A DNA stretch of 64,000 bases from an uncultured delta proteobacterium (GTDB lineage Bacteria; Desulfobacterota; RBG-13-43-22), in contig CAWJJC010000006.1 of assembly GCA_963843145.1 (NCBI GenBank), positions 1 through 64,000 on the forward strand, read 5' to 3'. The position numbers and the translations under genes were made by a program. Below, in pieces: positions 18,795-34,461 of this stretch. Under the pieces are notes generated by a model that was not told the origin of the DNA, did no database searches, and saw only the letters and a list, made by a program, of their open reading frames with translations. How positions within the stretch are numbered: the first letter of the stretch is position 1; each line of letters starts with the position of its first letter.

Positions 18795-19319
18795 CTAACA
18801 AATTTTTCTAAATGAAGCCAGGTACCGTTGCGCTAGTTCTTGGTAAAAGGCCAGACCTTCTCTGATTTGCACTATCTGTTCTGGACGCAATGCTTGAACA
18901 ATTTTGGCGGGGGAACCTATAACAAGACTTCCTTCAGGAATTTCCTTGTTAAAGGGGACAAAGCTACCCGCCCCTATAATGCAGCGGGAATGAATAGTGA
19001 CCCCATCGGCAATGATCGCCCCCATCCCTACCAAAACCTGGCTGTGAATTTCACAGCCATGGAGGATACTGCCATGACCGATATGGCTATCCTGGTGCAG
19101 TCGGGTGGTTTTTTCTGGAAAAGTATGGATGACTACGTTTTCCTGGACGTTGGAACCTTCGCCGATCCAAATGGTACCGATATCGCCCCGAAGAACAGCG
19201 CCCGCCCCGAGATAACAACCGGCCTCAACTCGGACATCACCGATCAATACGGCCTCAGGATGTACAAAAGTTCTGAGATCGACCCGGGGCCGCTTTCCTT
19301 CAAATTCATAAAAAGCCAC
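18795..19319 (-). CDS. Gamma-class carbonic anhydrase family protein (PaaY/CaiE-like)
   Basis: Hexapeptide repeats, LIGDV, VLRGD, NVQENVVIH, IGHGSILHGC, GSPAK. Confidence 0.9.
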   Translation of the reverse strand: MAFYEFEGKRPRVDLRTFVHPEAVLIGDVRVEAGCYLGAGAVLRGDIGTIWIGEGSNVQENVVIHTFPEKTTRLHQDSHIGHGSILHGCEIHSQVLVGMGAIIADGVTIHSRCIIGAGSFVPFNKEIPEGSLVIGSPAKIVQALRPEQIVQIREGLAFYQELAQRYLASFRKIC

Positions 19320-19382
19320 GATAATCCAGTCCGGGGGTAAGAGAGAAAAAGAGGAATAACCGAATTCTTGGTTCTGCCCCTC

Positions 19383-21089
19383 TTAACTCTTGTTAGTCCT
19401 TTCCAACACCTCCACGATTCCTATGTTTCCATCGATCCTGATTAAATCTCCATCGTTGATCGATCGGGTGGCATTCCAAGTCCCGACAACAGCCGGAATG
19501 TTATATTCCCGGGCGGCAATAGCCGCATGGGTTAACATGCCTCCGGTATCGGTGACCACACCGGCAATTTTAATAAAAAGAGGGGTCCAGGCCGTACCAG
19601 TGTAGGGACAAACGAGAATTTCTCCAGCCTTTACTTTTTGGAAATCCTTATAGTCAATGACTACCCGGGCCCGTCCTTCGGCGATGCCGGAAGCCCCGGG
19701 GAAACCTTCCAATCGTTCTTCAATTTCCCTTTCCCCCCTGGGATGGAGGATATCATCGATGATGCCGAACACTTTGATGCCAATCGGATCGGTCATTTTT
19801 TCAGGAACATTGCCGATGGTCAAGGGTGCGTCCGAATCAACAGCTATCCGAGTGTCTTCCTTTCTCTCCCGCACCAGATTAGGGATCAAGGCGCTGTAAT
19901 GATATTTGGCTATTTCCTCATTATAGACTAGGGCCTCCATCACTTCGACCAATTCATAGTAGGTCAAATAACAAACGTCCTCAATTTGTTCGATGAGCTT
20001 CCTGCGAAAAAGTCTCTTGCCACAGGCAATAATGGCATTATGCAAAGCCGCCGTAGATCCCTGGTCGATATAAAATCCGTGGTCTTCCTGGAAGGAATAA
20101 ACCCCTTGAGCAGCCTTCAATAATCGTCGGAATTGTCGTCTTTCTTCCTCCTCTTTCAACCCTTGTTCAAAGGTTATAATCGCCTTATCCCTTTGATCAT
20201 AAATTCCCTGTTTGGAAGCATAAAAATCCCATCCTGCTTCCATGCGCGGGTAATAGCCTTTTATCGTGTCCAGCACAGGAACCGGATCTTCTTTCCAGGT
20301 GGGTGTAGTTACATCCAAATGGGCGGCCACCACACGATTGCCAAAGATGGATAGAAAGCGCTGAAATTTTTCCAACCAGGGTTTGGCTTCCACGGTTTTA
20401 TTTAATTGTTCCATTAAATCCTCCGCCTTGGTCTTAAGCAGGAGGTCCTTAATCCCACACTCTTCAGCAAAATGAGCTAAGCTCCAGAGTTCTTCGTCGG
20501 TTTGGGTGGCAATACTTTCAAATCCTCTCAACATGATGACAAAATCCTTTTCTGCCAGATCATGTTTTTTACAGAATTCTTCAAAGCCGAAGTAGACGGC
20601 ATCGGCCGGATACATGAGGATGAAGTGAATTTCCCAATTTCTTCTATTCAATTTTTCAGCTCTTTTTAAATGATCCAAAAGATGCGGCAAGATCAGTTTG
20701 TCCGTATCCACACCATTCAGGGTATCCAGATTGGAGATGACTTCTTTGATATGCTTTTGATAGTATTCATCCCAGTGATCAATACAATAATCGACCAGAG
20801 TCCCGAAAGCCGGTTCTCTTTGGGCTATCTCTTTTGGATCATCGATCAGTGCAAAACCCAGGTACACTTTACCCTTATAGATCTTGACATGTCCCCCTTT
20901 GGAAGGCGGCAACTGCGTGGTGGCCGCAGCCACATGGTAACCCCAGGCATGGTGGACTTGAATAGTAGTCATACCCATGGGGGATATGGCATAGGGTTGA
21001 TGCAAATCATCACGAAACCAGAAGATGGACTTGTCGAAATCGGTGTTGGGTCTCAAGGTCCTTAAAGATGAAATACTTCGGTCTAACAT
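19383..21089 (-). CDS. Second phenylphosphate synthase alpha-like subunit (His swivel domain)
   Basis: FWFRDDLHQP, WEIHF, EDHGFYID, GIAEGRARV, WTPLF, DTGGMLTHAAIAAREYNIPAVVGT. Confidence 0.85.
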   Translation of the reverse strand: MLDRSISSLRTLRPNTDFDKSIFWFRDDLHQPYAISPMGMTTIQVHHAWGYHVAAATTQLPPSKGGHVKIYKGKVYLGFALIDDPKEIAQREPAFGTLVDYCIDHWDEYYQKHIKEVISNLDTLNGVDTDKLILPHLLDHLKRAEKLNRRNWEIHFILMYPADAVYFGFEEFCKKHDLAEKDFVIMLRGFESIATQTDEELWSLAHFAEECGIKDLLLKTKAEDLMEQLNKTVEAKPWLEKFQRFLSIFGNRVVAAHLDVTTPTWKEDPVPVLDTIKGYYPRMEAGWDFYASKQGIYDQRDKAIITFEQGLKEEEERRQFRRLLKAAQGVYSFQEDHGFYIDQGSTAALHNAIIACGKRLFRRKLIEQIEDVCYLTYYELVEVMEALVYNEEIAKYHYSALIPNLVRERKEDTRIAVDSDAPLTIGNVPEKMTDPIGIKVFGIIDDILHPRGEREIEERLEGFPGASGIAEGRARVVIDYKDFQKVKAGEILVCPYTGTAWTPLFIKIAGVVTDTGGMLTHAAIAAREYNIPAVVGTWNATRSINDGDLIRIDGNIGIVEVLERTNKS

Positions 21090-21161
21090 GGTTCTTACCT
21101 CCCTTTCTCCCCTTTATTGGCAATTGCCCTGGCCAATTCTTCGCACCGGGAAAGCCCTCGG

Positions 21162-22100
21162 TTATTTTCTCCGTAACGGAAACAATTCAAAACGAAGTTT
21201 TTTCATGAAAGTTCCGATTATCCCTTCGGGTGCTGAGAGGATGACCGTGATGGTGATCGCGCCCAAAATAATCATATTGTAGCCCACATATTCCGAGAGA
21301 AATTGTTGAAGCAGCACGTAAATGACGGCTCCCAGTATGGGACCTTCAATCGTACCAATTCCGCCTATAATCACAATAAACAAAAGTTTTACCGTCCAGC
21401 CGATGCCGAAGGCTTCAAAGGGCTGTATAAAAATAGCATTCAAATATAGAATTCCGGCCGCCATTCCCGAAACAAAGGCGCTGAGTAAGAAACAAGTAAA
21501 TTTGCAAAGGAAGATATTGACCCCCAAGGCCTCGGAAGCCACATCATCATCCCTGATAGCCATCAGTCCCAGCCCCAATTTGGTCCGGAGCAAGAGGTAA
21601 ATAAGAGAGACGGCGCCGATAGCCATGATCAAGGCGGCATAATAAACAGCAGACATGGAAAGTTTGTAGGCCGGTTGGATAAACATGCCCATTCCATAGC
21701 GGACGTACCCCCAATTGCTGAAGCAGATACCCAACGCCTCGGCGATGACCCATGTTCCTATGGCAAAATAAACCCCTTTCATCCTGAAAATGGGCAAAGA
21801 AATAAAAAGGGCCAAGACAGCAGAAATAAATCCCCCTAAAAATACACTTATAAAAATAGGAACCCCATAAAAAACCGATAATACGGCTAAGGTGTACCCG
21901 CCGACTCCGACAAACATTTGTTGTCCCAGGGAAATCATTCCCGAATAGCCGGCCAGGAGATTCCACATGGAGGCTAATGTGGCATTAACCAAGATCAACA
22001 ACAAGACATTGACGATATAGCGTGAAGACCAGAGAGGCAAGGTAACCAGCAGGGACAGAAAAACGAACCCTAAAATGATCCGTAAACGGTTCGAGTTCAT
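21162..22100 (-). CDS. LivM-type ABC permease (transporter 1)
   Basis: WNLLAGYSGMISLGQ, GVYFAIGT, LGLGLMAIRDD, IIGGIGTIEGPILGA. Confidence 0.9.
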   Translation of the reverse strand: MNSNRLRIILGFVFLSLLVTLPLWSSRYIVNVLLLILVNATLASMWNLLAGYSGMISLGQQMFVGVGGYTLAVLSVFYGVPIFISVFLGGFISAVLALFISLPIFRMKGVYFAIGTWVIAEALGICFSNWGYVRYGMGMFIQPAYKLSMSAVYYAALIMAIGAVSLIYLLLRTKLGLGLMAIRDDDVASEALGVNIFLCKFTCFLLSAFVSGMAAGILYLNAIFIQPFEAFGIGWTVKLLFIVIIGGIGTIEGPILGAVIYVLLQQFLSEYVGYNMIILGAITITVILSAPEGIIGTFMKKLRFELFPLRRK

Positions 22101-22108
22101 AGTAAAGT

Positions 22109-22972
22109 CTACCGCCTTCCCAATATGCCCTGAGGCCGGATGGTCAGGATGATGAGCAAGATAATATAGCCGCTTAATAATTGGAGGCCCGGTCCAAGCA
22201 CACGCCCCCCGACCAACTGGGAAATCCCCAGGATCACTCCTCCGATAAAAGTCCCGGGAAGACTGCCTAAGCCCCCTATAATCACTACGGCAAAGGCAGT
22301 GATCAAATATTGGGTCCCCGAATGGGGGTAAAAAGTAAAGGTCATACCGACTAATAACCCGGCAACGGCTGCGGTGACGGCCGAAATGCCCATGGCCAGG
22401 GCATAAATCCTTTTTGGATTAACCCCCATTAATTTGGCCGCCGTTAAATTGTCAGAGGCGGCCCGAATAGCCCGTCCCAGATAAGTGCGGGTCATAAACA
22501 GATACAGGAGAAGGAGGACCAATAAACCCAAACTAAAATCCACCAGGTAAATGACCGGTATGTAAAAGAGGTCGAAGACGTTGAAACTTTTAATGGCTAA
22601 ATCCGTTCTCAAAGAACGGGCGTCTGGGCTGAAAACAAGCAACAAGGCATTTTGAAGGATAATGGAGAGACCAAAGGAAATCATTAAAAATGGTTCCATT
22701 CCTTTTTGGATCACCCGGTTAAATAAAAGAGACTGTATCAAATAACCAAAAATAAACATGGCCGGAAGAATGAAGACAAGCGTCCAGATGGGGGAACCGG
22801 TCAAAATCTTCAGAGAAAGGAGGCTGAAATAACTGGAAAGGATCATCAATTCTCCATGAGCCAGATTCACCTGTCGCATAATTCCGAAAATCAAAGAAAG
22901 TCCTATGCCGATCACCGCATACAGCCCTCCCAGCAAAATCCCGTTTATTATAGGCTCAAATAAGGCCGTCAT
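22109..22972 (-). CDS. LivH-type ABC permease (transporter 1)
   Basis: NGILLGGLYAVIGIGLSLIFG, NLAHGE, LGRAIRAAS, RPQGILG. Likely ATG at 22972. Confidence 0.9.
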   Translation of the reverse strand: MTALFEPIINGILLGGLYAVIGIGLSLIFGIMRQVNLAHGELMILSSYFSLLSLKILTGSPIWTLVFILPAMFIFGYLIQSLLFNRVIQKGMEPFLMISFGLSIILQNALLLVFSPDARSLRTDLAIKSFNVFDLFYIPVIYLVDFSLGLLVLLLLYLFMTRTYLGRAIRAASDNLTAAKLMGVNPKRIYALAMGISAVTAAVAGLLVGMTFTFYPHSGTQYLITAFAVVIIGGLGSLPGTFIGGVILGISQLVGGRVLGPGLQLLSGYIILLIILTIRPQGILGRR

Positions 22973-23097
22973 GCGCAACAATCCCTTTCTGAATTTTGTG
23001 ATGTGAGCGCTATGTTTGAGGAGCACTGCGTTTGAAGGAAGAGGCACCTGCCTTTGGCCTCAAGTTTATCTCAGACGAACGCGCCTCAAACACTTGG

Positions 23098-23814
23098 TTA
23101 GGCTTTAAGGCCGAAATAGGCCCTCTTCACCTCTTCCTCCGACAATTCCGCTGGAACTCCCTCCAGAGCAATTTTCCCCTCCTGAAGGATATAAGCATAG
23201 TTGGCCACCTTGAGGCTTCTTTTAATATCCTGCTCCACCATAACAACGGTCATCCCTTCTCGGTTGATCTCTTGCACAGTCCTGAAAAGGACTTTAACCA
23301 CAATCGGACTTAATCCTAATGAGATCTCATCAAAAAGAATTAACCGAGGTTGGGACATCAAGGCCCGGCCGATGGCCAACATTTGTTGCTCTCCGCCGCT
23401 CAGATCGGTTCCCATCTGAGTACATCGTTCTTTTAATCTCGGAAAGAGGGAAAAAATCTTGTCCAGGGTTATCTTTCGAGCTTTCCGTGCTCGGCGGGGG
23501 AAAGAACCCATGAGCAAATTTTCCTGAACCGTTAAATTTGAAAATATCTTACGGCCTTCCGGTACCAGGGCCAGTCCCGATTCCAAAATGTGATGGGTTT
23601 CCAAAAGATCTATCCGGATTCCATCAAAATGAATGCTCCCCTCTCTGCCTTTTAAAAGACCGGCCATGGTTTTCAGCAAAGTGGATTTGCCAGCCCCGTT
23701 GGCCCCTAAGATGGAGACAATTTGGCCTTTTTCAACCTTCAGGGAAATGGAGTTCAGGGCTTTAAATTCCCCATAGAAGACCTCCAAATTCTTAATTTCA
23801 AGGGAGGAATTCAT
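23098..23814 (-). CDS. LivF-type ABC ATPase (transporter 1)
   Basis: [29 protein letters not shown] at 23814 overlaps the livG stop. Confidence 0.9.
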   Translation of the reverse strand: MNSSLEIKNLEVFYGEFKALNSISLKVEKGQIVSILGANGAGKSTLLKTMAGLLKGREGSIHFDGIRIDLLETHHILESGLALVPEGRKIFSNLTVQENLLMGSFPRRARKARKITLDKIFSLFPRLKERCTQMGTDLSGGEQQMLAIGRALMSQPRLILFDEISLGLSPIVVKVLFRTVQEINREGMTVVMVEQDIKRSLKVANYAYILQEGKIALEGVPAELSEEEVKRAYFGLKA

Positions 23815-24542
23815 AACTCTTCGGTCCCTAAATAAATATCCTGAACCTTCTTGGATTGAAAAGCCTCCTGAGGGGTTCCACAGAATACTTTTTCTCCAAA
23901 ATTTAAAACCAGCAGACGATCCGGACCTTTTTGCATGGCCATCATAATGTGTTCCACCCAAATGACGGTCATGCCTTTATTACGCAAGGCATGGATGATC
24001 TCCAAGACTTTTTCCACTTCCGATTCACCCAGCCCCCCGGCTATTTCATCGACTAAAATTAAAGAAGGCTTGCTAGCCAAAGCCTTGGCTAATTCAAGAC
24101 GCTTTCGGTCCAGGAGGGGTAAGGACCCAGCCAGGACATTTTTTTTGGCAATAAGGCCAGTTACCTCCAGAATGTCTTCACAGGTCTTTTTGGATTGGGA
24201 GCTGCTCATCCGGGCCCCGTATACGGCACCAACCAATAAATTTTCCAGGATACTCATAGTGAGGAAAGGACGGGGGATTTGATAGGTACGGGCAATGCCC
24301 AGACGACATTTCTTGTAAGCAGGGGTTAAAGTCACATCAACATTATTAAACAAAATCTTTCCCTTGTTGGGTTTGATCTGTCCGGATATTAGATTAAAGA
24401 GTGTGGTCTTTCCGGCCCCGTTAGGTCCAATGATGCCCAGGATTTCGCCGGTGTTGACCTCAAAACTGAGATCAAAAATAGGCATCAATTTACCGAAGGC
24501 CTTACGCAGGTTCTCCACAACAAGCAAGCGATTGTTTTCCAT
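23811..24542 (-). CDS. LivG-type ABC ATPase (transporter 1)
   Basis: GPNGAGKTT, GIARTYQ, LVDE, WVEH. Start could be at 24542 or 24569. Confidence 0.88.
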   Translation of the reverse strand: MENNRLLVVENLRKAFGKLMPIFDLSFEVNTGEILGIIGPNGAGKTTLFNLISGQIKPNKGKILFNNVDVTLTPAYKKCRLGIARTYQIPRPFLTMSILENLLVGAVYGARMSSSQSKKTCEDILEVTGLIAKKNVLAGSLPLLDRKRLELAKALASKPSLILVDEIAGGLGESEVEKVLEIIHALRNKGMTVIWVEHIMMAMQKGPDRLLVLNFGEKVFCGTPQEAFQSKKVQDIYLGTEEL

Positions 24543-24662
24543 CAAGAGAAAAACCTCATTGTCTTGCAAGGGTCTGGTCTGGAGCGGGGTATTACCTCGG
24601 CGCTCAGACTCGAAGCCTATCTTCTTAATCTGGAGGATAGGGGGAAGATCCTGTTTTTTTTA

Positions 24663-25987: not shown

Positions 25988-26082
25988 AATGCCCTCCCCT
26001 TTTATTTTAATTGTTAACTGCTCAACCATCTAATTATTTTTTTCTCAAAAACGTCGACCAAATGGCCAATTGCCCGGCAGTT

Positions 26083-27227: not shown

Positions 27228-27989
27228 TTACCCGATCATGGTCAAACCACCATCGACACTCAGTACCTGTCCGGTCACGTATCTGGAATCATCGCTTACA
27301 AAAAAGGCCACCACATCGGCCACATCTTCCGGCTCTCCAAGGCGTTTCAAAGGGATCATTTTGGCCACGGCCTCCATGATTTTCTTTCCTTTTTCCCCCT
27401 CATGAAGCCCTGCTAAGAGGTCCGTCTGGACCGGGCCTGGGCTCACACAATTGACTCGAATGTTAAATCGGGCCAATTCCCTGGCCAAGGCCTTGGAACT
27501 GGCCATAATCGCAGCCTTGGTGCCGCAATAAAGGACTTCCCCGGAATTTCCAATCCTTCCGGCATCTGAGCCGAGACTGACGATATTACCGCTATTTTGT
27601 TGAATCATATATGGCAGACAGACATGGGTAGTGTTTAAGAAGCTTCGGTAATTGACGTCAATCATTTTATCCCAAAGGACCGTCGCGGTATCCACAAAAA
27701 ACTTAGAGACATCCATGCCGGCATTATTAATGAGAATATCAATAGACCCGAATTGCTGATGGATCCTGGCTACCGCTTCTTTGACCTTCTCATAGTCGGT
27801 CACATCGCAATCCAGGGCCAAAGCTCCAACACCTAGGCCGGTTAGCTCCTCTGCTGTCTTCTGAGCCACCTCTTTTTGAATATCCATTAACCCGATAGAG
27901 GAACCTTCACGGGCCAGACGCAAGGCGATGGCCCGACCGATCCCCCTGGCCCCCCCGGTGACAACGGTTGTTTTTCCTGTTAATTTCAT
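27228..27989 (-). CDS. SDR resembling 2-hydroxycyclohexanecarboxyl-CoA dehydrogenase (BadH-like)
   Basis: TGGARGIG, NNAGMD, SDAGRIGNSGE, YCGTK, GQVLSVDGGLTMIG; these match motifs I recall from R. palustris BadH. Confidence 0.75.
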   Translation of the reverse strand: MKLTGKTTVVTGGARGIGRAIALRLAREGSSIGLMDIQKEVAQKTAEELTGLGVGALALDCDVTDYEKVKEAVARIHQQFGSIDILINNAGMDVSKFFVDTATVLWDKMIDVNYRSFLNTTHVCLPYMIQQNSGNIVSLGSDAGRIGNSGEVLYCGTKAAIMASSKALARELARFNIRVNCVSPGPVQTDLLAGLHEGEKGKKIMEAVAKMIPLKRLGEPEDVADVVAFFVSDDSRYVTGQVLSVDGGLTMIG

Positions 27990-27999: not shown

Positions 28000-29667
28000 T
28001 CATCTGGAATTTAATTCATGCCTTAATTTTTCTTCGATGTTCTTTTTCAAGACCTTTTTGTCCGCTTTTCCGGCGGCGGTGAGGGGGATGTACTGAACCA
28101 ATTCTATCCGTGCTGGAAGCTGGGCCCTGGGGGTCCCGACTTTTCCCAGGTGTCGGAGAATTTCTTCGGAAGTAACTTTCGACCCGGCCAGGGGTTTGAT
28201 AAATGCGCACACCTGTTCTCCGAATTCAGGATCAGGCATGCCCACCACTGCTACGTATTCCACTTCGGGATGAGAGGAGATAAGATCTTCCACATCCCTG
28301 GCGGCGATATTTTCTCCCCCGCGAATGATGATGTCTTTTATCCGGCCCGTGATCCGAATGGTCCCCTGCCCGTCAATGACCGCCAGATCACCGGTCCGGA
28401 AAAATCCATTGGCGGAAAAGGCCTTCTGGTTAGCCTGGGGATTTTTAAAATATCCGGTAAATACCCCAGGGCCTTTAGCCGCCAATTCACCTTCAACGCC
28501 AGGAGGGTTCTGGTTTCCGTTCGCATCCAAGGTAATGAACAGATCATAAGGGCAGACGGGCCGTCCTATCGTATTATAGCGGATTTCTTCAGAATCAACG
28601 GGACGGGATTGGGCGCAGGGCCCCTCAACCATTCCAAAGGCATTAATATACCGCGCGCCTATTTTTCTTTCTACGCTTCGGACCAATTCGGGCGGGCTAT
28701 TAGCCGCCCCGACATAAATTTTTCTTAAAGAACTGAGGTCATAGTTTTCAAGACCTTCATAACTAACGATCCGACTGATCAAAGTGGGTACCAGGCCGGT
28801 AGAGGTCACCTTTTCTTCCTGGACCAATCGGCAAAAATCCTGGGGATAGGTCGAATCCATCAGGACTACTTTCGCCCCGTGAAAGAGCGGACCGGTTACG
28901 GAGACCAGCAGGGCCAGATTATGTCCAACGGTCGAAGTGACCAGGCAGGTATCGGTAACATTGATATCCCAGGCCCGGGAGGTGTATTCCACGTTACAAA
29001 TATAATCGTTATGGGTCCGTGGGGCACCCTTAGGAAGACCGGTGGTTCCTCCCGAAGGCAAGATCTGGCAAACACTTCCCGGATCAGGCCGGGCCGCCTC
29101 CAAGGTTCGTTCTATTTCCGAGGAAGATACCTGCCTGGTTACCAGGTCATCAAACCAGAGGTTTCCATCTTCTTTAGCTGGGCCGGAGGGACTCGATAAA
29201 ATAATTTGTCTCAAACACGGGTTTTGACTTTGAACCTGCTCAATGAGGGGGAAGAAATCCAATTTACGATAGCGATCGGGTACGATCCAGCCCCTGGGCT
29301 GGGTGAGTTCGGCCAGATGGGAGACTTCCCTGGCGGTGTGGTTTATGGTCAGCAAAACCATAACCAGTCCGGCTTTTTGTAGGGCGAAATAGGCAATGAT
29401 AAATTCAGGCCAATTGGGGAGTTGGAGAAGGACGCGGTCCCCTGGGTCATATCCCAATTGAAGCAAACTGTAAGCCAGGGCGTCGACCTGGGACCGGAGC
29501 TCCTTATAAGTATACCTTTTTTCCTCTCCTATCAGGGCCTCTTTGGTCGGATAAAGATCGCTGGCTTTGTCGAGCATATCCCCCAGGGTTATGCCTAACC
29601 ACCAGCGTTTTTTTTCATACTCTTCGGCTACTTTTGAATCGTAAGGGGTAAAACCATTCAGATTCAT
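28000..29667 (-). CDS. Aryl-acid adenylation enzyme / CoA ligase (DhbE/EntE- or AliA-like)
   Basis: LQLPNWPEF, SGGTTGLPKGAPRTHNDY, GHNL, FGMVEG, FRTGD, GRIKDIIIRGGENI, GKADKK. Confidence 0.85.
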   Translation of the reverse strand: MNLNGFTPYDSKVAEEYEKKRWWLGITLGDMLDKASDLYPTKEALIGEEKRYTYKELRSQVDALAYSLLQLGYDPGDRVLLQLPNWPEFIIAYFALQKAGLVMVLLTINHTAREVSHLAELTQPRGWIVPDRYRKLDFFPLIEQVQSQNPCLRQIILSSPSGPAKEDGNLWFDDLVTRQVSSSEIERTLEAARPDPGSVCQILPSGGTTGLPKGAPRTHNDYICNVEYTSRAWDINVTDTCLVTSTVGHNLALLVSVTGPLFHGAKVVLMDSTYPQDFCRLVQEEKVTSTGLVPTLISRIVSYEGLENYDLSSLRKIYVGAANSPPELVRSVERKIGARYINAFGMVEGPCAQSRPVDSEEIRYNTIGRPVCPYDLFITLDANGNQNPPGVEGELAAKGPGVFTGYFKNPQANQKAFSANGFFRTGDLAVIDGQGTIRITGRIKDIIIRGGENIAARDVEDLISSHPEVEYVAVVGMPDPEFGEQVCAFIKPLAGSKVTSEEILRHLGKVGTPRAQLPARIELVQYIPLTAAGKADKKVLKKNIEEKLRHELNSR

Positions 29668-29736: not shown

Positions 29737-30867
29737 TTATGGTTTTGGTATTTGGATACTGCCGTCTTTCTTTTTCCACTGAACACAAGTAACTTCCTCG
29801 AAGGCCCCTTCGGCCTCCCGACACTTGTTGCAGTAAATGCACTTAACGATATCCCTTTCCCGCCCTTCCTGGAACTTTTTGGGCCAAAAAGGATCACAGA
29901 GGATGGGGCGGGCGATAGCCACCATATCCGCCTCGGAATTATTAAGAATGCTCTCGGCTATTTGGGCTGTGGGAATCCTGCCCGCCGTAATAATCGTGGG
30001 ATAAAGACCAGCCTGATTTATGATTTTTTTGATATCAGCGGCTAAATAGACATTGACTTTTTCGGGCATCCAAAGAGGAGGCATAGATCGATTTCCACTA
30101 TAACCGGTATAGGGATCCAACGACTCCCCTTCTCTGGGGATGGCATCTTCAAACTTTCCTCCGGCCGAAACACTGATATAGTCCAGACCGAGTTCGGCCA
30201 AGCGTAAGGCAATAGAACGTGTCTGGCTGAGGGAGTTCCCTCCCAAGGTGAATTCATCGCCATTCATCCGCGCACCGAGTACAAAATCATCACCGATGGC
30301 CTGACGCACGGCCTGGACAACATCTATAGCCAGATGCATCCGGTTTTCCAGGTTTCCGCCGTAATCATCTTTTCGGTGGTTATGGCGGGATAGAAAGGAA
30401 GCCATGGTGTAGGCATGGGCAAAATGGAGCTCAACGGCGTCAAATCCGGCTTGGCGGGCACGGTAAGCGGCCTGGGTAAACAATCGAGGAATTTCCTGAA
30501 CCTCCTCCAGGGGCAGGTCTTCCACCTTTTGACGATAGCCGGTCCGGGAAATCTTTAAAAAGTGAATAATTTGAGGAGCAATCTTGGCCTCGGTTTCCCG
30601 GTGCACCCGTTCGGTTAATGCCTTGAGTCCATGGATAAATTCATCGTCATTTAAACGTAACAACTGGCCGCTTTTTTGTTTTTTTACGGATACGGCTTCG
30701 GTGACAACGATACCCGCGCCACCTCGGGCGTAAAGGTGATATCGATTGATTAATTCTTCCGTGACCTTTCCCTCTTCGGTGGCCAACCGGGTGACCACCG
30801 GCGGCATCATGATTCGGTTGGAGAGTTTGAGTTTGTTTTTCATGTAATATGGTTCGAAAAGTTTCAT
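29737..30867 (-). CDS. Old Yellow Enzyme-family flavin oxidoreductase with a C-terminal 4Fe-4S motif, lacking the FAD/NAD(P)H domain
   Basis: LSNRIMMPP, ARGGAG, GFDAVELHFAHAY, RKDDYGG, ADMVAIARPILCDP, CIYCNKC-x11-C; the protein ends at 376 aa. Confidence 0.85.
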   Translation of the reverse strand: MKLFEPYYMKNKLKLSNRIMMPPVVTRLATEEGKVTEELINRYHLYARGGAGIVVTEAVSVKKQKSGQLLRLNDDEFIHGLKALTERVHRETEAKIAPQIIHFLKISRTGYRQKVEDLPLEEVQEIPRLFTQAAYRARQAGFDAVELHFAHAYTMASFLSRHNHRKDDYGGNLENRMHLAIDVVQAVRQAIGDDFVLGARMNGDEFTLGGNSLSQTRSIALRLAELGLDYISVSAGGKFEDAIPREGESLDPYTGYSGNRSMPPLWMPEKVNVYLAADIKKIINQAGLYPTIITAGRIPTAQIAESILNNSEADMVAIARPILCDPFWPKKFQEGRERDIVKCIYCNKCREAEGAFEEVTCVQWKKKDGSIQIPKP

Positions 30868-30911: not shown

Positions 30912-31541
30912 TTACTTTGTCAATTGAATCAACGCGGTAATAAGATCATATACGTCCTGTTGACGTTGACCCGCCCGGATTCCAAGCTTCAACCAGATCT
31001 TGGAAGCCAATTCCTTGAGCTGGGTGGATGGTAAATCTTTGAGCTCTCGGAGATCCAATCCTTCGCCCTCTATTGCTTTCTTGAGGGCCAAAACTATTTC
31101 GCCAAGGGTGTCTTCTGTTTTTTCCAAATGGAAAAAATGGTCCGTTTTATTGCCTTCTCGAATGGACTTATCGGCCGTCAGGGAAAAAGTTTCTTCCAAG
31201 TGGATTCTTTTAAGCGACAAGGGTTTTCGGTTGATTTCAATCAGTTCCGGATAACCGTCGGATTTGTTTAAAGAGAGTCTGCCCCTGTCTTCAGGTCGGC
31301 TGATGACATAATAGCGATTGATTCCGGAACAGGCCGGATCCACCTCCAAAACTTCTTTCCAGCCGTCTTCCCATTCCAGAAGGAGATATTTCTCCTTTCC
31401 AGGGAAAGGACTGGGGAGGCTAAAAAAAGGGTTATTCAGAAGTTCTTTCTGAAAAGACAGGGGCAGGGTGTTAAAGACAACAGTGGTCTTTGAACCGTCC
31501 TCGAATTCAACCGTTAACTTCTTGGGCCTGGATTGCAACAC
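30912..31541 (-). CDS. Hypothetical protein
   Basis: 209-aa ORF tightly packed and co-oriented in the operon, AAGGA RBS; no motif recognised. Confidence 0.7.
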   Translation of the reverse strand: MLQSRPKKLTVEFEDGSKTTVVFNTLPLSFQKELLNNPFFSLPSPFPGKEKYLLLEWEDGWKEVLEVDPACSGINRYYVISRPEDRGRLSLNKSDGYPELIEINRKPLSLKRIHLEETFSLTADKSIREGNKTDHFFHLEKTEDTLGEIVLALKKAIEGEGLDLRELKDLPSTQLKELASKIWLKLGIRAGQRQQDVYDLITALIQLTK

Positions 31542-31546: not shown

Positions 31547-32278
31547 TTATTCCTTCTTTTTGAGTATTGTCTTAAGTTCTAAGAAGGATTGGATGACCAG
31601 ATCAGCTTTGGACTGCCCTAAATCGATAAAACCGGTATATTGAATGGTCTTAAAGCCCCGGTCGTGAGCTGGATTAATATCGGTTTCCGGTTTGTCCCCG
31701 ATCATAACGGCCTCCCCCGGTTCGATGCCTCGTTCCTTTAATTCCTGGGCCAAGACATCATAAAGCCTTCCGTCTTTCTTAGTATGGCCTTTATACTTCA
31801 AATTGATAGTATCATTTTCCAGATTGATTTTCCCCTGGGGGGTAACTAGCTCTTTAAAATACTTGACCAGTCCGCGTTGTTTTAAAAAACGGGAGATAAC
31901 ATGGGCCCCTACCGGTCCGAGGGTCTTTTTCATTTCTGAGACGACTTGAAGCTCTATCCCCCGGACCTGCAAATAGGAAAGGGTTTCTTCCAACCCTTCT
32001 CCTATTTGCAAAAAGGCTTGTTCTTTCTGGTTGAATAACTCAATGGCTTGAAGATCATCATCCAGGACGAAGCTGTAGATTTCATCCCGATGTCCTTCTT
32101 TTATCCGTCCATAATCTCCATATTTTTCCTTGAGAATCCTATATTTTTGTATTTTATCGGAAATCAACTCCGGCTTTCCCAGTGTCTTATAAATATCGCC
32201 AAAGACCAAAGGATTCCTTAGCCCTCCCGGCTCCATGATACACTGGCCATAATCAAACCCACACCATTTCACTTCCAT
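31547..32278 (-). CDS. HAD-superfamily hydrolase (atypical motif I)
   Basis: GFDYGQC (motif I with only the first Asp), VVSE (motif II), K...LY, VMIGDKPETDINPAHDRGFKTI (motif IV). Confidence 0.75.
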   Translation of the reverse strand: MEVKWCGFDYGQCIMEPGGLRNPLVFGDIYKTLGKPELISDKIQKYRILKEKYGDYGRIKEGHRDEIYSFVLDDDLQAIELFNQKEQAFLQIGEGLEETLSYLQVRGIELQVVSEMKKTLGPVGAHVISRFLKQRGLVKYFKELVTPQGKINLENDTINLKYKGHTKKDGRLYDVLAQELKERGIEPGEAVMIGDKPETDINPAHDRGFKTIQYTGFIDLGQSKADLVIQSFLELKTILKKKE

Positions 32279-32371: not shown

Positions 32372-32379
32372 CTTCTTTT

Positions 32380-33408
32380 CTATTTCATAGGCGGTAATTT
32401 AAAGAGCCTTTCCAAATTTTTGCCCAGGATCAGATCAACCTCATCTTGTGTAAGTCCGGCTTGTTCTCCCACCTCTTTGACCGCCTTAATGGCCCCTTCA
32501 GGATCGCCGACCCGATGGGCATAATCGGTTCCAATACACATGTGGTCCGGACCGACCCATTCCAGGCAGCACTTCATGGCCGGATGATAAAAGGAGGTGG
32601 TATCCGGATAGACCCTGTTCTTATAGGTGATATCCGGCGATTCATCCAACACAACACCCCATTCCTTTCCATAGCCTTTATAGGAGTCCTGTAATCTTCG
32701 AACAAAATAAGGGACCATGCCGCCCAGATGGCCGTGAACAATAGTCAACTTGGGATATTTCTTCATAACGCCTTGGAAGATGAGGCTTAGGACGGCCATG
32801 CTGGTATCCAGGGTGTAACCCCAAAGCTGGTAAGGCAACCGCATTTTGTTCATCACGTCTTTGGTCATAGGAACGGCCGGATGCATCAGCATAGGGAGTT
32901 CATATTTGTTGGCCATTTCATAAATGCCATGGTATTTTTCCAGGAAAATAGGTTCAAAATTAAAATTGGAAAACATTTGAATCCCGACACAACCCATCTG
33001 ATGGCACCTTTCCAATTCTTTACAGGCTTCATCCGGATCCTGATAGGGAAGAGAAGCCAGGAAATAGAATCGTCCCGGATAATCTTCAGTGGCCTTTTTA
33101 AGCGCGTCGTTGCACTTTTGCGCCCAATAAATACCGATATCTCTCTCCAGGGTTTCCGGCCCCGGGATGGTGACGCTGAGAAGCTGGGTATCTAGACCGC
33201 CCTTATCAAGATCTTTAATTCTTTCCTCCAGATCATAATGGCCGGCTCTGTCGATATGGGCGACACAAACACCCTCATACCACATCCGGTAATGGGTCCC
33301 GCCGTCGTGAACGCCGTTAGGGGAATTCTTGGTCCCCCGGCTGCAAAGATATTCCAAGTATTCTTTGGGATACCAATGATTGTGGGCATCAACTGTCCTT
33401 TGTGCCAT
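32380..33408 (-). CDS. Amidohydrolase_2 family protein (ACMSD/LigW/IDCase-type non-oxidative decarboxylase-like)
   Basis: VDAHNH (HxH), LMHP, DTS, HGHLGGMVPYF..RL, YPDT, IGTDYAH, ILGKN. Confidence 0.8.
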   Translation of the reverse strand: MAQRTVDAHNHWYPKEYLEYLCSRGTKNSPNGVHDGGTHYRMWYEGVCVAHIDRAGHYDLEERIKDLDKGGLDTQLLSVTIPGPETLERDIGIYWAQKCNDALKKATEDYPGRFYFLASLPYQDPDEACKELERCHQMGCVGIQMFSNFNFEPIFLEKYHGIYEMANKYELPMLMHPAVPMTKDVMNKMRLPYQLWGYTLDTSMAVLSLIFQGVMKKYPKLTIVHGHLGGMVPYFVRRLQDSYKGYGKEWGVVLDESPDITYKNRVYPDTTSFYHPAMKCCLEWVGPDHMCIGTDYAHRVGDPEGAIKAVKEVGEQAGLTQDEVDLILGKNLERLFKLPPMK

Positions 33409-33426
33409 CTTTATTATCCTCCTTTA

Positions 33427-34407
33427 TTATTCTTTAAGATTTTTTATATTTCTGCTTTGCAAGATAAATAAATTTCCCTTTTCGTAAGCCCATTCGATAT
33501 CCTGAGGGAGACCAAACAACCCTTCAATCTTAATTCCGATTTGACCCAATTCCTGCACTTGGTCATCCGAAAGAGTAGATCTATCCATTAGATCGGGATT
33601 CACAGTGATCTCTTTCCTTCCAACCCCTTTTTCTTCGTCAAAGCAAACCATAACCGTCTTTTTGGCGATCTTCTTTTGTTTTATCTGGAGGGTTGCTTTA
33701 TCCAATGAGAAAAAATCGTTCATCGATTTGCCGGAAACAACCGATTCGCCCAACCCCCAATTGGCTTCAATGACCATCTCTTTTTTGCTGCTGGTTATCG
33801 GGTTGGCGGTAAATAAAATACCGGCCATCTCGGGATTAATCATTTTCTGAACGATCGGGGCGATCAACCCCAGATGATGGTCAATTTTCTTATGATAACG
33901 GTTGAAAGTCGCCCTCGAAGTCCATAAGGAGGCCCAACACAGCTTTATATGCGTCAGGATTTCCTCCCTTTCTTTCAAGTAATGGAAGGTATCCATCATC
34001 CCGGGAAAGGAAGAGATCGGAAGGCCCTTGACCGCTACAGAAGATCGGACGGCCACGAAAACCTGATCCGGGCCGGTCAACTTATCTATGGAATCCGTCA
34101 ACTCTCTTAATAAATCGGCCGGAATAGGAGCGGAGATAATCAGGTCTCTGATTTCATTAGTTTTACCATCGATGATGGCATAATCCTCGTAATCAAAACC
34201 ACCAACGGCCTCATCAATTTTGGGCTGCAAATTATTTTTCTCAAGATGATGATAAAGAGAATTTGCCAGCACGCAGAAACCAGAGGGTACGTTAAATCCT
34301 GCTTGAGTCAATTCCCCTAAGTTGGCCGCTTTTCCACCAGCCTCTTGGATGTCTCCTTTGGTCATTTCTTCGAAAAATTTAATGTAGGTTCCGATTGGGA
34401 TCACCAC
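33427..34407 (-). CDS. Second phenylphosphate synthase beta-like subunit (stand-alone ATP-grasp domain)
   Basis: GGKAANLGEL, VPSGF, VAVRSS, SFPGMMDT, CWASLWTSRA, ANWGLGESVVSG, PQDIEWA, ILQSR. Start codon uncertain. Confidence 0.88.
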   Translation of the reverse strand: MVIPIGTYIKFFEEMTKGDIQEAGGKAANLGELTQAGFNVPSGFCVLANSLYHHLEKNNLQPKIDEAVGGFDYEDYAIIDGKTNEIRDLIISAPIPADLLRELTDSIDKLTGPDQVFVAVRSSVAVKGLPISSFPGMMDTFHYLKEREEILTHIKLCWASLWTSRATFNRYHKKIDHHLGLIAPIVQKMINPEMAGILFTANPITSSKKEMVIEANWGLGESVVSGKSMNDFFSLDKATLQIKQKKIAKKTVMVCFDEEKGVGRKEITVNPDLMDRSTLSDDQVQELGQIGIKIEGLFGLPQDIEWAYEKGNLFILQSRNIKNLKE

Positions 34408-34444
34408 CTTTCTTAAAAATTATCTTTATGTTAGGCTATAGGAT

Positions 34445-34461
34445 ATCAAGAATAATGCCAG
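34445..34461 (-). promoter_or_regulatory. Sigma54-like promoter of operon 2
   Basis: Minus strand CTGGCATTATTCTTGAT: GG-N10-GA (variant -12). Lies between an NtrC-type gene and the operon, with an AT-rich upstream tract containing a near-IHF site (34544-34556). Confidence 0.65.

Follow-up and report, generated by a model that had tools for sequence, protein, structure and literature searches.

An operon within a 64,000-nucleotide contig stretch of an uncultured delta proteobacterium (the window) encodes both subunits of a PpsAB-type kinase together with an amidohydrolase-fold enzyme, which raises the question of whether a phenolic compound could be carboxylated here with the amidohydrolase in the place of UbiD, as a preliminary description had proposed. 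Sequence comparisons lead us to assign a probability of roughly 0.6 to the reading that the operon mediates an ATP-driven, UbiD-independent ortho-carboxylation of a phenolic compound, feeding a route of o-hydroxyaroyl-CoA reduction. No published description of this gene set was found in the literature searched.

Gene content and regulation of the operon

Sixteen co-oriented genes (18795-34407, minus strand) lie downstream of a sigma54 response regulator gene, as seen from the ORF listing, Pfam and NCBIfam, and the intergenic gaps calculated from the ORF coordinates are 5-128 bp. Every gene named in the preliminary description is present, all on the minus strand, as set out below:

36094..37221, minus strand: PAS sensor histidine kinase (Pfam PAS_9, HisKA, HATPase_c)
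34682..36103, minus strand: response regulator with sigma54-activator AAA+ domain and Fis-type HTH (Pfam Response_reg; Sigma54_activat, 232 bits; HTH_8)
34445..34460, minus strand: sigma54-like -24/-12 element TGGCATTATTCTTGAT upstream of ppsB, read from the sequence
33427..34407, minus strand: PpsB-like ATP-binding subunit (PpsB2) of a split PEP-synthase-type kinase (Pfam PPDK_N, 281 bits)
32380..33408, minus strand: ACMSD-type Amidohydro_2 metal enzyme (Amido2), proposed ortho-carboxylase (PF04909, 100 bits versus a cut-off of 26.4)
31547..32278, minus strand: HAD-fold protein with nucleophile Asp and invariant Gly at Asp+2 (weak HAD_2/Hydrolase_like Pfam matches)
30912..31541, minus strand: orphan 209-aa protein, constant HAD partner (no family match)
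29737..30867, minus strand: short OYE-family flavoenzyme, 376 aa, with C-terminal [4Fe-4S] Cys motif (Oxidored_FMN, 172 bits)
28000..29667, minus strand: aryl-acid CoA/AMP ligase of the DhbE/EntE/salicylate-AMP-ligase type (PDB sequence matches; TIGR02275)
27228..27989, minus strand: BadH-like SDR (adh_short_C2; BadH model 261 bits, under the cut-off of 431)
26083..27207, minus strand: acyl-CoA dehydrogenase, ACAD (Acyl-CoA_dh N, M and C domains)
24698..26029, minus strand: Liv-type periplasmic binding protein with TAT signal (Peripla_BP_6, 148 bits; TAT_signal)
21162..24569, minus strand: two ABC ATPases (23811-24569, 23098-23961) and two permeases (22109-23047, 21162-22100) (ABC_tran, BPD_transp_2)
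19383..21089, minus strand: PpsA-like substrate/phospho-histidine subunit (PpsA2) of the split kinase (Pfam PEP-utilizers, 82 bits)
18795..19319, minus strand: hexapeptide-repeat protein, PaaY/CaiE/gamma-CA-like (Hexapep; PaaY 180, CaiE 147, gamma-CA 136 bits, all under cut-offs)

The response regulator, which is AtoC/NtrC-like by NCBIfam with scores under the cut-offs, and the PAS histidine kinase are encoded directly upstream of the operon on the same strand; the histidine kinase gene and the beginning of the response-regulator gene overlap, and the histidine kinase is the probable sensor for the unit. The -12 part of TGGCATTATTCTTGAT is imperfect, with TTGA instead of TTGC. The sequence TGGCAY-N5-TTGCW precedes ppsB in 8 of 24 related loci, and its TTGAT variant does so in L004. 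Because the called ORFs of the two ATPases overlap, the second ATPase probably starts further downstream.

Amido2 belongs to the branch of reversible non-oxidative decarboxylases that comprises ACMSD, LigW and the gamma-resorcylate, salicylate and 2,3-DHB decarboxylases; among proteins of solved structure, it is matched best by ACMSD, LigW and gamma-resorcylate decarboxylase, with E values from 1e-28 to 1e-22. In an alignment of 36 sequences His9, His11, His176 and His227 are invariant and Asp295 is nearly so; these are the metal-binding and catalytic residues, with an HxH pattern like that of ACMSD. All 31 sequences of the HAD-fold protein in alignment A2 have Asp9, Gly11, Lys167, Asp195 and Asp200, and they therefore lack the general acid/base at Asp+2, such that the protein might not be a hydrolase. 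Its orphan partner, whose constant association with the HAD was overlooked in the preliminary description, has zero matches in Pfam, NCBIfam, PDB sequences and the ESM-Atlas, and a fold search with its AF2 model (pLDDT 89.3) gave no match either.

With a length of just 376 aa and CIYCNKC-x11-C at its C-terminus, the OYE carries an FMN and a [4Fe-4S] motif without the FAD/NAD(P)H domain; it aligns to the N-terminal half only of BaiCD/FadH-type NCBIfam models, and its PDB relatives include DCR and NCR. The best NCBIfam match of the ligase is the DHB-AMP ligase TIGR02275 (384 bits, under the cut-off of 723), and the 13 PDB sequences that match it most closely all belong to aryl-acid adenylating enzymes of the 2,3-DHB/salicylate type (lowest E 3.7e-94), in agreement with the DhbE type assigned previously. 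By contrast, the suggestion that a gamma-CA supplies CO2/bicarbonate is not supported: the hexapeptide protein scores best as PaaY-like, under every cut-off, and homologues (65-72% identity) lie beside the cluster, 3.5-4.4 kb past the boundary of the retrieved locus, in just three of five closely related genomes, so that a part in CO2 supply is no more than conjecture.

Conservation of the module and its relation to UbiD

Amido2 homologues (57-99% identity) were the basis for fetching 68 related loci, which span at least five phyla (Thermodesulfobacteriota, Actinomycetota, Chloroflexota, Pseudomonadota and Acidobacteriota). In 63 of the 68 the flanks encode a kinase subunit, for which the threshold was 40% identity or more to PpsA or PpsB, such that the kinase-amidohydrolase association, for which a gene-neighbourhood check had been suggested, is conserved. 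PpsB homologues adjoin Amido2 in most loci and different phyla retain the order PpsB-Amido2-(HAD-orphan)-PpsA, a recurrence that places the arrangement beyond chance. The five loci with no kinase in their flanks (L010, L018, L022, L027, L033) encode Amido2 proteins of 75-84% identity; three have an OYE nearby, L010 and L022 a ligase as well, L027 spans just 3.6 kb, and the genome of L033 has the full cluster as well, L033 being an additional copy. These loci indicate that Amido2 may work without phosphorylation.

The remaining genes are less constant. HAD and orphan co-occur in 43 of 68 loci, and in 10 loci without HAD an IMPase-family enzyme, unrelated to HAD, directly follows PpsA, which suggests that the kinase-Amido2 pair is nearly always accompanied by a phosphatase of one of these non-homologous types; neither is seen in the aerobic-type loci L051, L061 and L066. 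The HAD is thus part of the unit here, as previously described, but is not universal. OYE accompanies the module in 40 of 68 loci and the ligase in 37, whereas SDR and ACAD (at least 60% identity) are restricted to a subgroup (19/68 and 18/68). Minimal loci (L052, L065, L066, L068) hold kinase, Amido2 and transporter without OYE or ligase, three of them with IMPase. In five aerobic-type loci, a bicupin of the gentisate/5-aminosalicylate-1,2-dioxygenase family lies downstream of the module, with scores of 245-302 bits, under the gentisate-dioxygenase cut-off of 442. The relatives of the ligase, together with these bicupins, suggest that the downstream enzymes would expect an o-hydroxybenzoate.

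UbiD and UbiX are absent from the window by Pfam scan of 48 of its 50 non-overlapping ORFs of at least 90 aa (in place of the plus-strand ORFs 23935-24282 and 24364-24663, the minus-strand ORF 23811-24569 was scanned). A whole-genome search gave three UbiD matches, none of them on the contig of the window; elsewhere the genome holds a canonical PpsA-PpsB-UbiD-UbiX cluster with its own kinase, which qualifies the claim of UbiD-independence. The window PpsB is 30-36% identical to its paralogues in the same genome and the window PpsA, in which the motif GGMLTHAAIAAREYNIP is read, 28% to the other PpsA copies. Amido2-adjacent kinases form a group of their own: in a quick tree, PpsA2 clusters with Amido2-adjacent PpsA proteins, within a supported subclade (SH-aLRT 98) that also contains aerobic-type loci with bicupin, and UbiD-adjacent PpsA proteins form a separate pair (support 100).

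Two Syntrophus genomes (G406, G413) carry PpsB-Amido2-HAD-orphan-PpsA-OYE-ligase with zero UbiD-family matches, and in L061 a UbiD/UbiX cluster lies 6-9 kb from the PpsB-Amido2-PpsA genes. At L083, in another genome, a HAD-orphan pair (48% and 31% identity) is located between a UbiD carboxylase and PpsA-PpsB; the two layouts are otherwise equivalent, and Amido2 therefore stands where the carboxylase would be. Conservation, the separate kinase group, the UbiD-free Syntrophus genomes, this shared HAD-orphan pair and the DhbE-type ligase all favour an amidohydrolase-fold carboxylase in the place of UbiD beside a PpsAB-type kinase, whereas the gamma-CA role in the original proposal is not supported.

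Proposed pathway and alternative explanations

In the catalytic sequence, direction included, that we infer, the Liv-type ABC system would import the substrate, PpsA2/PpsB2 would phosphorylate its phenolic hydroxyl at the expense of ATP, and the Amidohydro_2 metal enzyme would add CO2 ortho to a hydroxyl. The HAD(DxG)-orphan pair would handle the phosphate ester, so that, we propose, an otherwise unfavourable carboxylation becomes irreversible. We slightly favour a phenylphosphate-carboxylase-like coupling, in which dephosphorylation would give the phenolate that is then carboxylated, over an Hpe-like order, in which the aryl phosphate would be carboxylated first and the product dephosphorylated after. 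The DhbE-type ligase would form the o-hydroxyaroyl-CoA, and the FMN/[4Fe-4S] OYE may reduce the activated ring without ATP, using an external low-potential donor; a separate donor is needed because the FAD/NAD(P)H module is missing. SDR and ACAD would convert the alicyclic CoA ester further, in the direction of the lower pathway of benzoyl-CoA degradation, which is encoded in the same genome (BamA/Oah 537 bits, above cut-off).

Our leading, albeit tentative, guess for the substrate is hydroquinone; its carboxylation would give gentisate, and activation of the latter gentisyl-CoA. The suggested link draws on co-occurrence at the level of organisms and on loci of types B and C, which share only 45-54% identity with the kinase, OYE and ligase of the window. 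One protein of G413 is identical to P0029, which NCBI assigns to Syntrophus gentianae, a known hydroquinone carboxylator and presumably the strict anaerobe meant in a 2013 review; Amido2 occurs in only two of seven genomes of the family of G413. That review counts one fermenter, a strict anaerobe, among the bacteria that convert hydroquinone to gentisate by carboxylation and reduce gentisyl-CoA, and calls the enzymes of both reactions uncharacterised (PMC3727088). The operon probably uses ATP to attach CO2 beside a phenolic hydroxyl through an enzyme type not known for such a reaction, and it may contain the genes that have long been missing for anaerobic hydroquinone degradation.

Phosphorylation could instead provide a handle, as in Cre and Hpe, on an imported hydroxy-aromatic di-acid or related compound that Amido2 then decarboxylates, hydrates or hydrolyses, ahead of dephosphorylation and CoA activation; we consider this rather unlikely. 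Characterised members of the Amidohydro_2 branch, judged by the names of the relatives, act physiologically as decarboxylases or hydratases, and Amido2, OYE and ligase occur without kinase in some loci. Moreover, a binding-protein-dependent importer fits an anionic acid better than a neutral phenol, which counts against carboxylation, as do the scores of ligase, SDR and PaaY/gamma-CA-like protein below equivalog cut-offs. That phosphorylation can be a handle instead of an energy input is indicated by the published Hpe account (PMC9618137). A decarboxylation, however, would proceed without ATP, whereas no gene neighbours Amido2 more constantly than the kinase; the HAD-orphan pair recurs in a UbiD/PpsAB cluster of phenol-carboxylating layout; and in minimal aerobic-type loci kinase, Amido2 and phosphatase are followed directly by a gentisate-dioxygenase-like enzyme, whose substrate needs a carboxyl group.

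Unlikelier still is a reductive dehydroxylation, in which the hydroxyl of an aroyl-CoA is phosphorylated and the OYE eliminates the phosphate reductively, with Amido2 in a side role. Although phosphate is a good leaving group and OYE and ligase frequently accompany the module, this would leave the most conserved protein, Amido2, without a role and render a separate phosphatase counter-productive, and the minimal loci dispense with OYE and ligase altogether. Gentisyl-CoA dehydroxylation does figure as an unexplained activity in the 2013 review (PMC3727088). That the kinase feeds a UbiD carboxylase elsewhere, with Amido2, HAD and orphan as mere catabolic neighbours of separate function, is very improbable: the three UbiD homologues, one of them clustered with PpsA-PpsB and UbiX, and the proximity seen in L061 would permit it, but that UbiD cluster has its own kinase pair, 28-36% identical and in a separate clade, the Syntrophus genomes have the module without UbiD, and the gene order is constant across phyla.

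Comparison with known systems

The reversible amidohydrolase-fold decarboxylases share the fold family as well as the metal-binding and catalytic residues of Amido2, but are distant from it (E 1e-28 at best); Amido2 constitutes its own family, which is tied to kinase and phosphatase, unlike the ACMSD-, LigW- and gamma-resorcylate-type enzymes. We know of no amidohydrolase-fold decarboxylase that is coupled to ATP, nor of any case of ATP-coupled amidohydrolase-type carboxylation.

In the Cre pathway of Corynebacterium glutamicum (CreHI kinase), as proposed for the window operon, a PpsAB-type kinase phosphorylates a phenol in catabolism and the phosphate is later removed; there, a P450 oxidises the side chain and no carboxylation is known. 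A precedent for the order kinase, carboxylase, HAD phosphatase is the Hpe/Acv pathway of 4-hydroxyacetophenone and acetovanillone, where, according to the published account, the HpeHI kinase, the HpeCBA biotin carboxylase and the HpeD HAD phosphatase act and phosphorylation is a prerequisite for carboxylation (PMC9618137). Hpe and the proposed route of the window operon alike bring together, in a single cluster, a CoA ligase, a phosphatase of the HAD family, a carboxylase and a kinase of PpsAB type, but the Hpe carboxylase is biotin-dependent and acts on the acetyl side chain, whereas the window operon lacks biotin enzymes and would be expected to carboxylate the ring.

The 2-naphthoyl-CoA reductase NCR and 2,4-dienoyl-CoA reductase resemble the window OYE in FMN TIM-barrel, [4Fe-4S] Cys motif and CoA-ester context; at ~670-710 aa, they possess the whole C-terminal FAD/NAD(P)H module that the 376-aa protein lacks.

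In the Thauera aromatica-type PpsABC and PpcABCD system, phenol is phosphorylated, carboxylated in para position by UbiD-family subunits and converted to the CoA ester. The window operon appears to follow the same logic, with a split PEP-synthase-type kinase of ATP-binding and phospho-histidine subunits and a HAD-fold protein accompanying the carboxylase. It has no PpsC-like CBS protein, its helper is a HAD with DxG plus the orphan, unlike in PpcABCD, and its kinase clade is separate from UbiD-adjacent kinases. The carboxylase slot is occupied by an Amidohydro_2 metal enzyme rather than by UbiD-family subunits, and the expected regiochemistry is ortho instead of para.

Gene content of the operon and UbiD homologues of the host

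ORF calling places sixteen genes on the minus strand within 18795–34407, separated by intergenic gaps of 5–128 bp, and together with Pfam and NCBIfam assignments it confirms the gene set named in the preliminary description. The split kinase architecture of the PpsAB family is present, comprising a PPDK_N subunit (PpsB2) and a PEP-utilizers mobile-His subunit (PpsA2) (Pfam), and the second gene encodes an ACMSD-type Amidohydro_2 protein, hereafter Amido2.

Genes of the operon in transcription order
33427–34407, minus strand: PpsB-like ATP-binding protein (PpsB2); PPDK_N (PF01326), 281 bits
32380–33408, minus strand: Amidohydro_2 protein (Amido2), second; PF04909, 100.2 bits against a gathering score of 26.4
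31547–32278, minus strand: HAD-fold protein, third; Pfam
30912–31541, minus strand: orphan protein of 209 aa, fourth; no Pfam or NCBIfam family match
29737–30867, minus strand: Oxidored_FMN protein (OYE) of 376 aa, fifth; Pfam
28000–29667, minus strand: AMP-dependent ligase, sixth; best NCBIfam model DHB-AMP ligase TIGR02275, 384.5 bits, below the cut-off of 723.55
27228–27989, minus strand: SDR, seventh; BadH model TIGR03206, 261.3 bits, below the cut-off of 431.2
26083–27207, minus strand: acyl-CoA dehydrogenase (ACAD), eighth; Pfam
24698–26029, minus strand: Liv-type binding protein with TAT signal; Pfam, NCBIfam
Between binding protein and PpsA, minus strand: two ABC ATPases and two permeases; Pfam
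19383–21089, minus strand: PpsA-like protein (PpsA2); PEP-utilizers (PF00391), 82 bits
Last gene, minus strand: hexapeptide protein; PaaY 180.5, CaiE 147 and gamma-CA 136.1 bits, all below cut-offs

Directly upstream, and in the same orientation, are the genes for a PAS histidine kinase and a sigma54-type response regulator; a sigma54-like element, TGGCATTATTCTTGAT, is located at 34445–34460 ahead of ppsB. In 8 of the 24 related loci checked, the canonical TGGCAY-N5-TTGCW precedes ppsB, and the TTGAT variant of the window's element recurs in one relative (L004). A promoter and terminator scan of 17500–37400 gave counts close to the shuffled expectation and hence no information on operon limits, and the generic GG-N10-GC pattern showed no enrichment (46 found, 32 expected). 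The twin-arginine (TAT) signal is unusual for the Liv-type binding protein family. A search of sequencing runs returned groundwater and wetland metagenome runs with shares of at most 0.09, no RNA run being listed.

The preliminary description had noted that the window lacks UbiD, and indeed none occurs among the scanned window ORFs or on the window's contig, C6, of which the window is 1–64000, so that UbiD-family catalytic subunits, as in PpcABCD, are absent from the operon cluster by ORF scan and contig search. A whole-genome search of the host assembly (5.35 Mb, 32 contigs, 97.9% complete, 6.9% contamination) finds three UbiD homologues, none of them on C6. On another contig (C20) lies PpsA(628 aa)-PpsB(361)-UbiD-ligase-UPF0261-PAC-UbiX-UPF0261-HD, which is the canonical phenol/aniline-type layout with its own kinase; the identity of PpsA2 and PpsB2 to these kinase subunits is only 28% and 36%. 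A BamA/Oah ring hydrolase scores above its cut-off (537 bits), and the host genome is therefore able to finish a benzoyl-CoA-type pathway.

Other features of the window
47–14111, plus strand: second sigma54-type unit with activator (47–1138), a well-formed -24/-12 element TGGCATTGAACTTGC at 1269–1283, SDR, PpsA/PpsB pair (2280–3962, 4027–5052; 28–29% identical to the operon's), a 219-aa orphan, HdrD-like CCG/Fe-S membrane protein, ETF alpha and beta, FAD oxidoreductase and a 912-aa xanthine-dehydrogenase-family Mo enzyme; no carboxylase of either the UbiD or the Amido2 type
14225–18776, minus strand: second ABC transporter of the Liv type, immediately downstream of the operon; the genes for its permeases and for one ATPase are broken into several frames, either as pseudogenes or through MAG assembly errors
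37279–39832, minus strand: bis-MGD molybdopterin oxidoreductase, FDH-alpha-like (274 bits, below the cut-off of 666), lacking the C-terminal Molydop_binding domain and running into an SDR gene; full-length homologues in 6 of 68 related loci and in the UbiD-type locus L083, split into two ORFs in L034
57685–63401, plus strand: two full-length PEP-synthase-like proteins (878 and 864 aa; PPDK_N and PEP-utilizers, N-terminal extensions), with a single-domain response regulator between them and another after both on the opposite strand

Conservation of the kinase, Amido2 and the HAD-orphan pair

Homologues of Amido2 are 59–86% identical to it among the 120 matches listed, and a locus scan with one genome per species yielded 68 loci with a relative, in which neighbours were counted by tblastn at a coverage of at least 50%. 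The proposed association of kinase and Amido2 is conserved in this sample.

Neighbours of Amido2 in the 68 loci
PpsA or PpsB homologue, at least 40% identity: 63/68
Both PpsA and PpsB: 37/68, many flanks stopping at contig ends
HAD and orphan together: 43/68
OYE: 40/68
Ligase: 37/68
SDR, at least 60% identity: 19/68
ACAD, at least 60% identity: 18/68

Five loci lack a kinase subunit (L010, L018, L022, L027, L033); among them, L027 is a 3.6-kb contig and L033 a second Amido2 copy in a Syntrophus genome that also has a full cluster; around this copy lie transposases and a Crp-type regulator, an uninformative context. When the 982 ORFs of the 68 loci are clustered, three architectures emerge. Type A, to which the window belongs, has the order PpsB-Amido2-HAD-orphan-OYE-ligase-SDR-ACAD-(ABC)-PpsA and is carried by Desulfatiglandales-like MAGs, Actinomycetota MAGs and Desulfocarbo indianensis. 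Type B (IclR-ECH-ABC-PpsB-Amido2-HAD-orphan-PpsA-(AFOR)-OYE-ligase) occurs in Syntrophaceae, Syntrophorhabdales and others, and type C in Alphaproteobacteria, including Roseiarcus fermentans, and in Chloroflexota, where a MEDS/BTAD regulator precedes PpsB-Amido2-PpsA, followed by an IMPase-family phosphatase (10 loci) and a bicupin (5 loci). Four type A clusters (L011, L013, L035, L039) contain, further down, a second Amido2 paralogue of 37–41% identity that has no counterpart in the window's operon.

In a quick maximum-likelihood tree of 35 PpsA proteins, built without named reference sequences and with several long branches, the 31 Amido2-adjacent proteins, including PpsA2, form one group (SH-aLRT 91), whereas PpsA2 does not group with the UbiD-adjacent kinases (host C20 and L083), which form a separate pair with a support of 100. 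The window's other PpsA (2280–3962) pairs with a second PpsA of L083, also at 100, and PpsA2 itself lies inside a 16-row subclade (SH-aLRT 98) that holds the bicupin-containing and minimal type C loci. Thus, the kinases follow the carboxylase type, whereas the HAD-orphan pair crosses types.

Indeed, a profile search with the orphan protein over 401 genomes of the phylum gave matches in 10, among them L083 (G320:C49:13200-33100), where a divergent LysR gene faces UbiD-HAD-orphan-PpsA-PpsB-ligase-Mo oxidoreductase-second PpsA. This is a UbiD-type phenol-like cluster in which the HAD-orphan pair (HAD 48%, orphan 31% identical to the window's), inserted between UbiD and PpsA-PpsB-ligase, replaces the usual helper subunits; because the pair adjoins UbiD here, the same accessory pair serves both cluster types. 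Nor is it exclusive to Amido2, since it stands beside UPF0261 (Tm-1-like) genes in L088 (G006:C74) and L089 (G401:C87), on contigs with no kinase, UbiD or Amido2, and with OYE-ligase-SDR-ACAD in L087 (G374), with no Amido2 nearby. UPF0261 is also present in the host's UbiD cluster, L045 and L061. In 31 of 31 sequences the HAD has lost the Asp+2 general acid (D-x-G) and retains its nucleophile Asp together with motifs III and IV. The orphan has 14 invariant positions among 32 aligned members (W57, G60, E63, R82, E84, G87, R88, P98, R105, P107, E129, G130, K132, D196), and its AlphaFold2 model (pLDDT 89.3, pTM 0.82) places a helical C-terminal part after a beta-rich core. A PDB sequence search returned nothing with E < 0.5, the ESM Atlas no usable match, and fold searches with the model no convincing relative, which does not in itself establish a novel fold; the best Foldseek match has E 1.6e-3 and TM 0.17, and the best VIA match (Z 4.7, rmsd 3.2 over 82 residues) is a coronavirus M protein. 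We considered a PpcC-like small subunit as its role. A complex prediction for Amido2 and HAD with the orphan as partner scored 0.14 relative to a mark of 0.32 and speaks neither for nor against binding. The window's other orphan (5084–5743) is unrelated to this family (profile comparison probability 0.1). With a confident model and no fold relative found, the orphan and the Asp+2-less HAD constitute a new accessory pair that deserves structural work.

The closest solved relatives of Amido2, all of them decarboxylases of the non-oxidative type, are ACMSD, LigW and the gamma-resorcylate, salicylate and 2,3-DHB enzymes (E 1e-28 to 1e-14). Its residues H9/H11, H176, H227, D295 and R238 are invariant or nearly so in 36 family members and align with H6/H8, H174, H224, D291 and R235 of ACMSD, where the HxH pair, one further His and the Asp bind the metal, the other His is catalytic and the Arg binds the substrate. 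We read Amido2 as a candidate carboxylase in the place of UbiD, with the layout of L083 as comparison, because of these decarboxylase relatives and the conserved site, because ATP would be spent beside it and the kinase is its most constant neighbour, and because a phosphatase is needed but interchangeable (HAD-orphan versus the unrelated IMPase-family enzyme of type C); the strongest point is that the HAD-orphan pair also serves a UbiD-type cluster.

Downstream enzymes and the hydroquinone lead

Aryl-acid adenylating enzymes of the 2,3-dihydroxybenzoate/salicylate type make up all 13 best solved relatives of the ligase (DhbE, E 3.7e-94; salicylate-AMP ligase, 9.8e-93; next family from 3e-56), and with 384.5 of the 723.55 bits required by TIGR02275 it does not qualify as a DhbE/EntE equivalog. 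The position of DhbE Ser240, the contact to the 3-hydroxyl, is a gap in the operon ligase with hydrophobic residues adjoining, a weak hint against 2,3-DHB as substrate. The OYE ends in CIYCNKC-x11-C, stops at residue 376 and matches only positions 3–346 of the 642-position BaiCD model; it therefore has the [4Fe-4S] motif of the dienoyl-CoA-reductase group without the FAD/NAD(P)H domain. An aldehyde:ferredoxin-oxidoreductase-family (tungsten-type) gene is found in 8 of the 68 loci (L014, L018, L019, L023, L028, L054 and others), directly before OYE in six of these and between PpsA and OYE in five; its product may be the electron-input partner of the donor-domain-less OYE. The SDR, likewise, falls short of BadH (2-hydroxycyclohexanecarboxyl-CoA dehydrogenase; TIGR03206, 261.3 against 431.2 bits). 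Of the gamma-CA proposed earlier, a hexapeptide gene in the unit stands and the family assignment is not supported: the protein scores highest with PaaY (180.5 bits, cut-off 319.6) and misses the gamma-CA cut-off (NF050158, 136.1 against 250 bits). Homologues fall outside the 10-kb flanks of related loci, and 65–72% identical ones lie on the operon strand 3.5–4.4 kb past the fetched locus in 3 of 5 type A genomes. It may be a source of CO2 or, as PaaY does, clear stray CoA esters by hydrolysis, roles between which the sequence does not decide.

Type C loci bear on the likely product. Bicupins of the gentisate/5-aminosalicylate 1,2-dioxygenase family follow the module in L051, L053, L055, L064 and L065 (gentisate model 245–302 bits, cut-off 442; 5-aminosalicylate model 172–336 bits, cut-off 650), those of L055 and L064 being assigned by clustering only. 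The substrate of gentisate-type 1,2-dioxygenases has to carry a carboxyl ortho to a hydroxyl. An importer, a kinase and Amido2 make up the minimal type C loci, with a phosphatase in L052, L065 and L068 and a dioxygenase-like gene only in L065; in this minimal layout with dioxygenase, judged by gene content, Amido2 is the sole candidate for installing the carboxyl group. An FAA-hydrolase-family gene occurs near the module of L066. L061 has a MobR/DmpR-type phenol-sensing regulator near its module; at 14797–20977, this regulator and an opposite-strand UbiX-UPF0261-UbiD (phenylphosphate-carboxylase-beta-like) lie 2–9 kb from the PpsB-Amido2-PpsA end, and both carboxylation systems can therefore be neighbours.

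A database protein, P0029, is 77% identical to Amido2 and bears the NCBI name Syntrophus gentianae, which we presume to be the strictly anaerobic fermenting bacterium of the hydroquinone work. Genome G413 encodes a protein 100% identical to P0029 and G406 one of 99%, both within PpsB-Amido2-HAD-orphan-PpsA-OYE-ligase (L094 and L024); among 7 genomes examined of that family, only these two carry Amido2 at E ≤1e-60. A UbiD-family search gave 0 matches in either genome and was positive in 9 of 14 control genomes. According to a 2013 review, which cites studies of Desulfococcus sp. Hy5 and of a fermenting strict anaerobe, anaerobic hydroquinone degradation begins when an uncharacterised carboxylase converts the substrate to gentisate; CoA activation comes next, and then an oxygen-sensitive, uncharacterised gentisyl-CoA reduction (PMC3727088). 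Judged by gene co-occurrence, the content fits this route step for step: kinase and ortho-carboxylase would convert hydroquinone to gentisate, the DhbE-type ligase would yield gentisyl-CoA, and an FMN/[4Fe-4S] OYE that lacks an NAD(P)H domain would perform the oxygen-sensitive, low-potential reduction. The lead concerns type B directly, the window being type A. We put forward only tentatively, and with more doubt than belief, the wider proposal that this gene family represents the enzymes of anaerobic hydroquinone degradation missing since 1994, namely an ATP-driven hydroquinone carboxylase (PpsAB-type kinase, ACMSD-fold metal carboxylase and HAD(DxG)-orphan 'aryl-phosphate handling' pair) and an ATP-independent FMN/[4Fe-4S] gentisyl-CoA reductase, that it forms a second, convergent solution to phenol carboxylation, and that the HAD-orphan pair is a universal accessory module for UbiD-type and amidohydrolase-type carboxylases.

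Order of steps and comparison with known systems

We favour, with a probability of about 0.6, that the operon encodes an ATP-driven, UbiD-independent aryl-phosphate ortho-carboxylation. A catabolic decarboxylation of a phospho-tagged substrate would agree with the decarboxylase relatives of Amido2, and has to be weighed against the spending of ATP beside it; were the phosphate instead a leaving group for reductive dehydroxylation, the operon's OYE would be at hand, against which minimal type C loci carry kinase and Amido2 with no OYE. Dependence of the operon kinase on a distant UbiD draws on the three homologues of the host; against this stand the C20 cluster's own kinase, the grouping of PpsA2 and the UbiD-free genomes G406 and G413.

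Within the favoured ortho-carboxylation, two orders are conceivable. In a Ppc-like order, HAD-orphan would dephosphorylate and Amido2 would carboxylate the freed phenolate; this is favoured by the presence of the pair in a UbiD cluster as well and by the Asp+2 loss in all 31 HAD sequences, which could leave the departing phenolate unprotonated. In an Hpe-like order, the aryl phosphate itself would be the substrate of Amido2, with carboxylation ortho to another hydroxyl that is free, and a phosphatase specific for the product would pull the equilibrium. This order is favoured by the exchange of the phosphatase for a non-homologous IMPase-family enzyme, and by the Hpe precedent, in which the carboxylase takes only the phospho-substrate and the NagD-like HAD HpeD prefers the carboxylated product (PMC9618137). 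We rate the Ppc-like order slightly higher.

Carboxylation is the entry step for the oxygen-free breakdown of phenolic compounds and, to our knowledge, UbiD-family enzymes provide the only such route understood at gene level. If the reading is correct, a conserved amidohydrolase-type carboxylase coupled to a kinase would solve this a second time by a different mechanism, one that is metal-dependent, ortho-directed and made irreversible by ATP. An unfavourable equilibrium holds back amidohydrolase-type carboxylases, and one that nature has coupled to ATP would show biocatalysis a way past this limit. Hydroquinone carboxylation and gentisyl-CoA reduction, which the 2013 review calls uncharacterised (PMC3727088), would likewise gain candidate genes. 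A literature search covering few subscription journals found no PpsAB-type kinase joined to an amidohydrolase-type carboxylase and no hydroquinone-carboxylation genes; publication elsewhere is possible.

The proposed system resembles known ones and differs from them. PpsAB/PpcABCD employs UbiD-family catalytic subunits, whereas the operon has Amido2; the operon's HAD-fold gene may or may not correspond to the HAD-type delta subunit of PpcABCD. The Hpe/Acv pathway uses a biotin-dependent three-component carboxylase, whereas no operon gene contains biotin carboxylase, carboxyltransferase or BCCP domains (Pfam). DCR, NCR and BaiCD combine an FMN barrel and [4Fe-4S] cluster with a C-terminal FAD/NAD(P)H domain, which the operon OYE lacks. 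Aryl-phosphate carboxylation itself is known; what is new is the non-homologous candidate carboxylase, its different expected regiochemistry and the new accessory pair.
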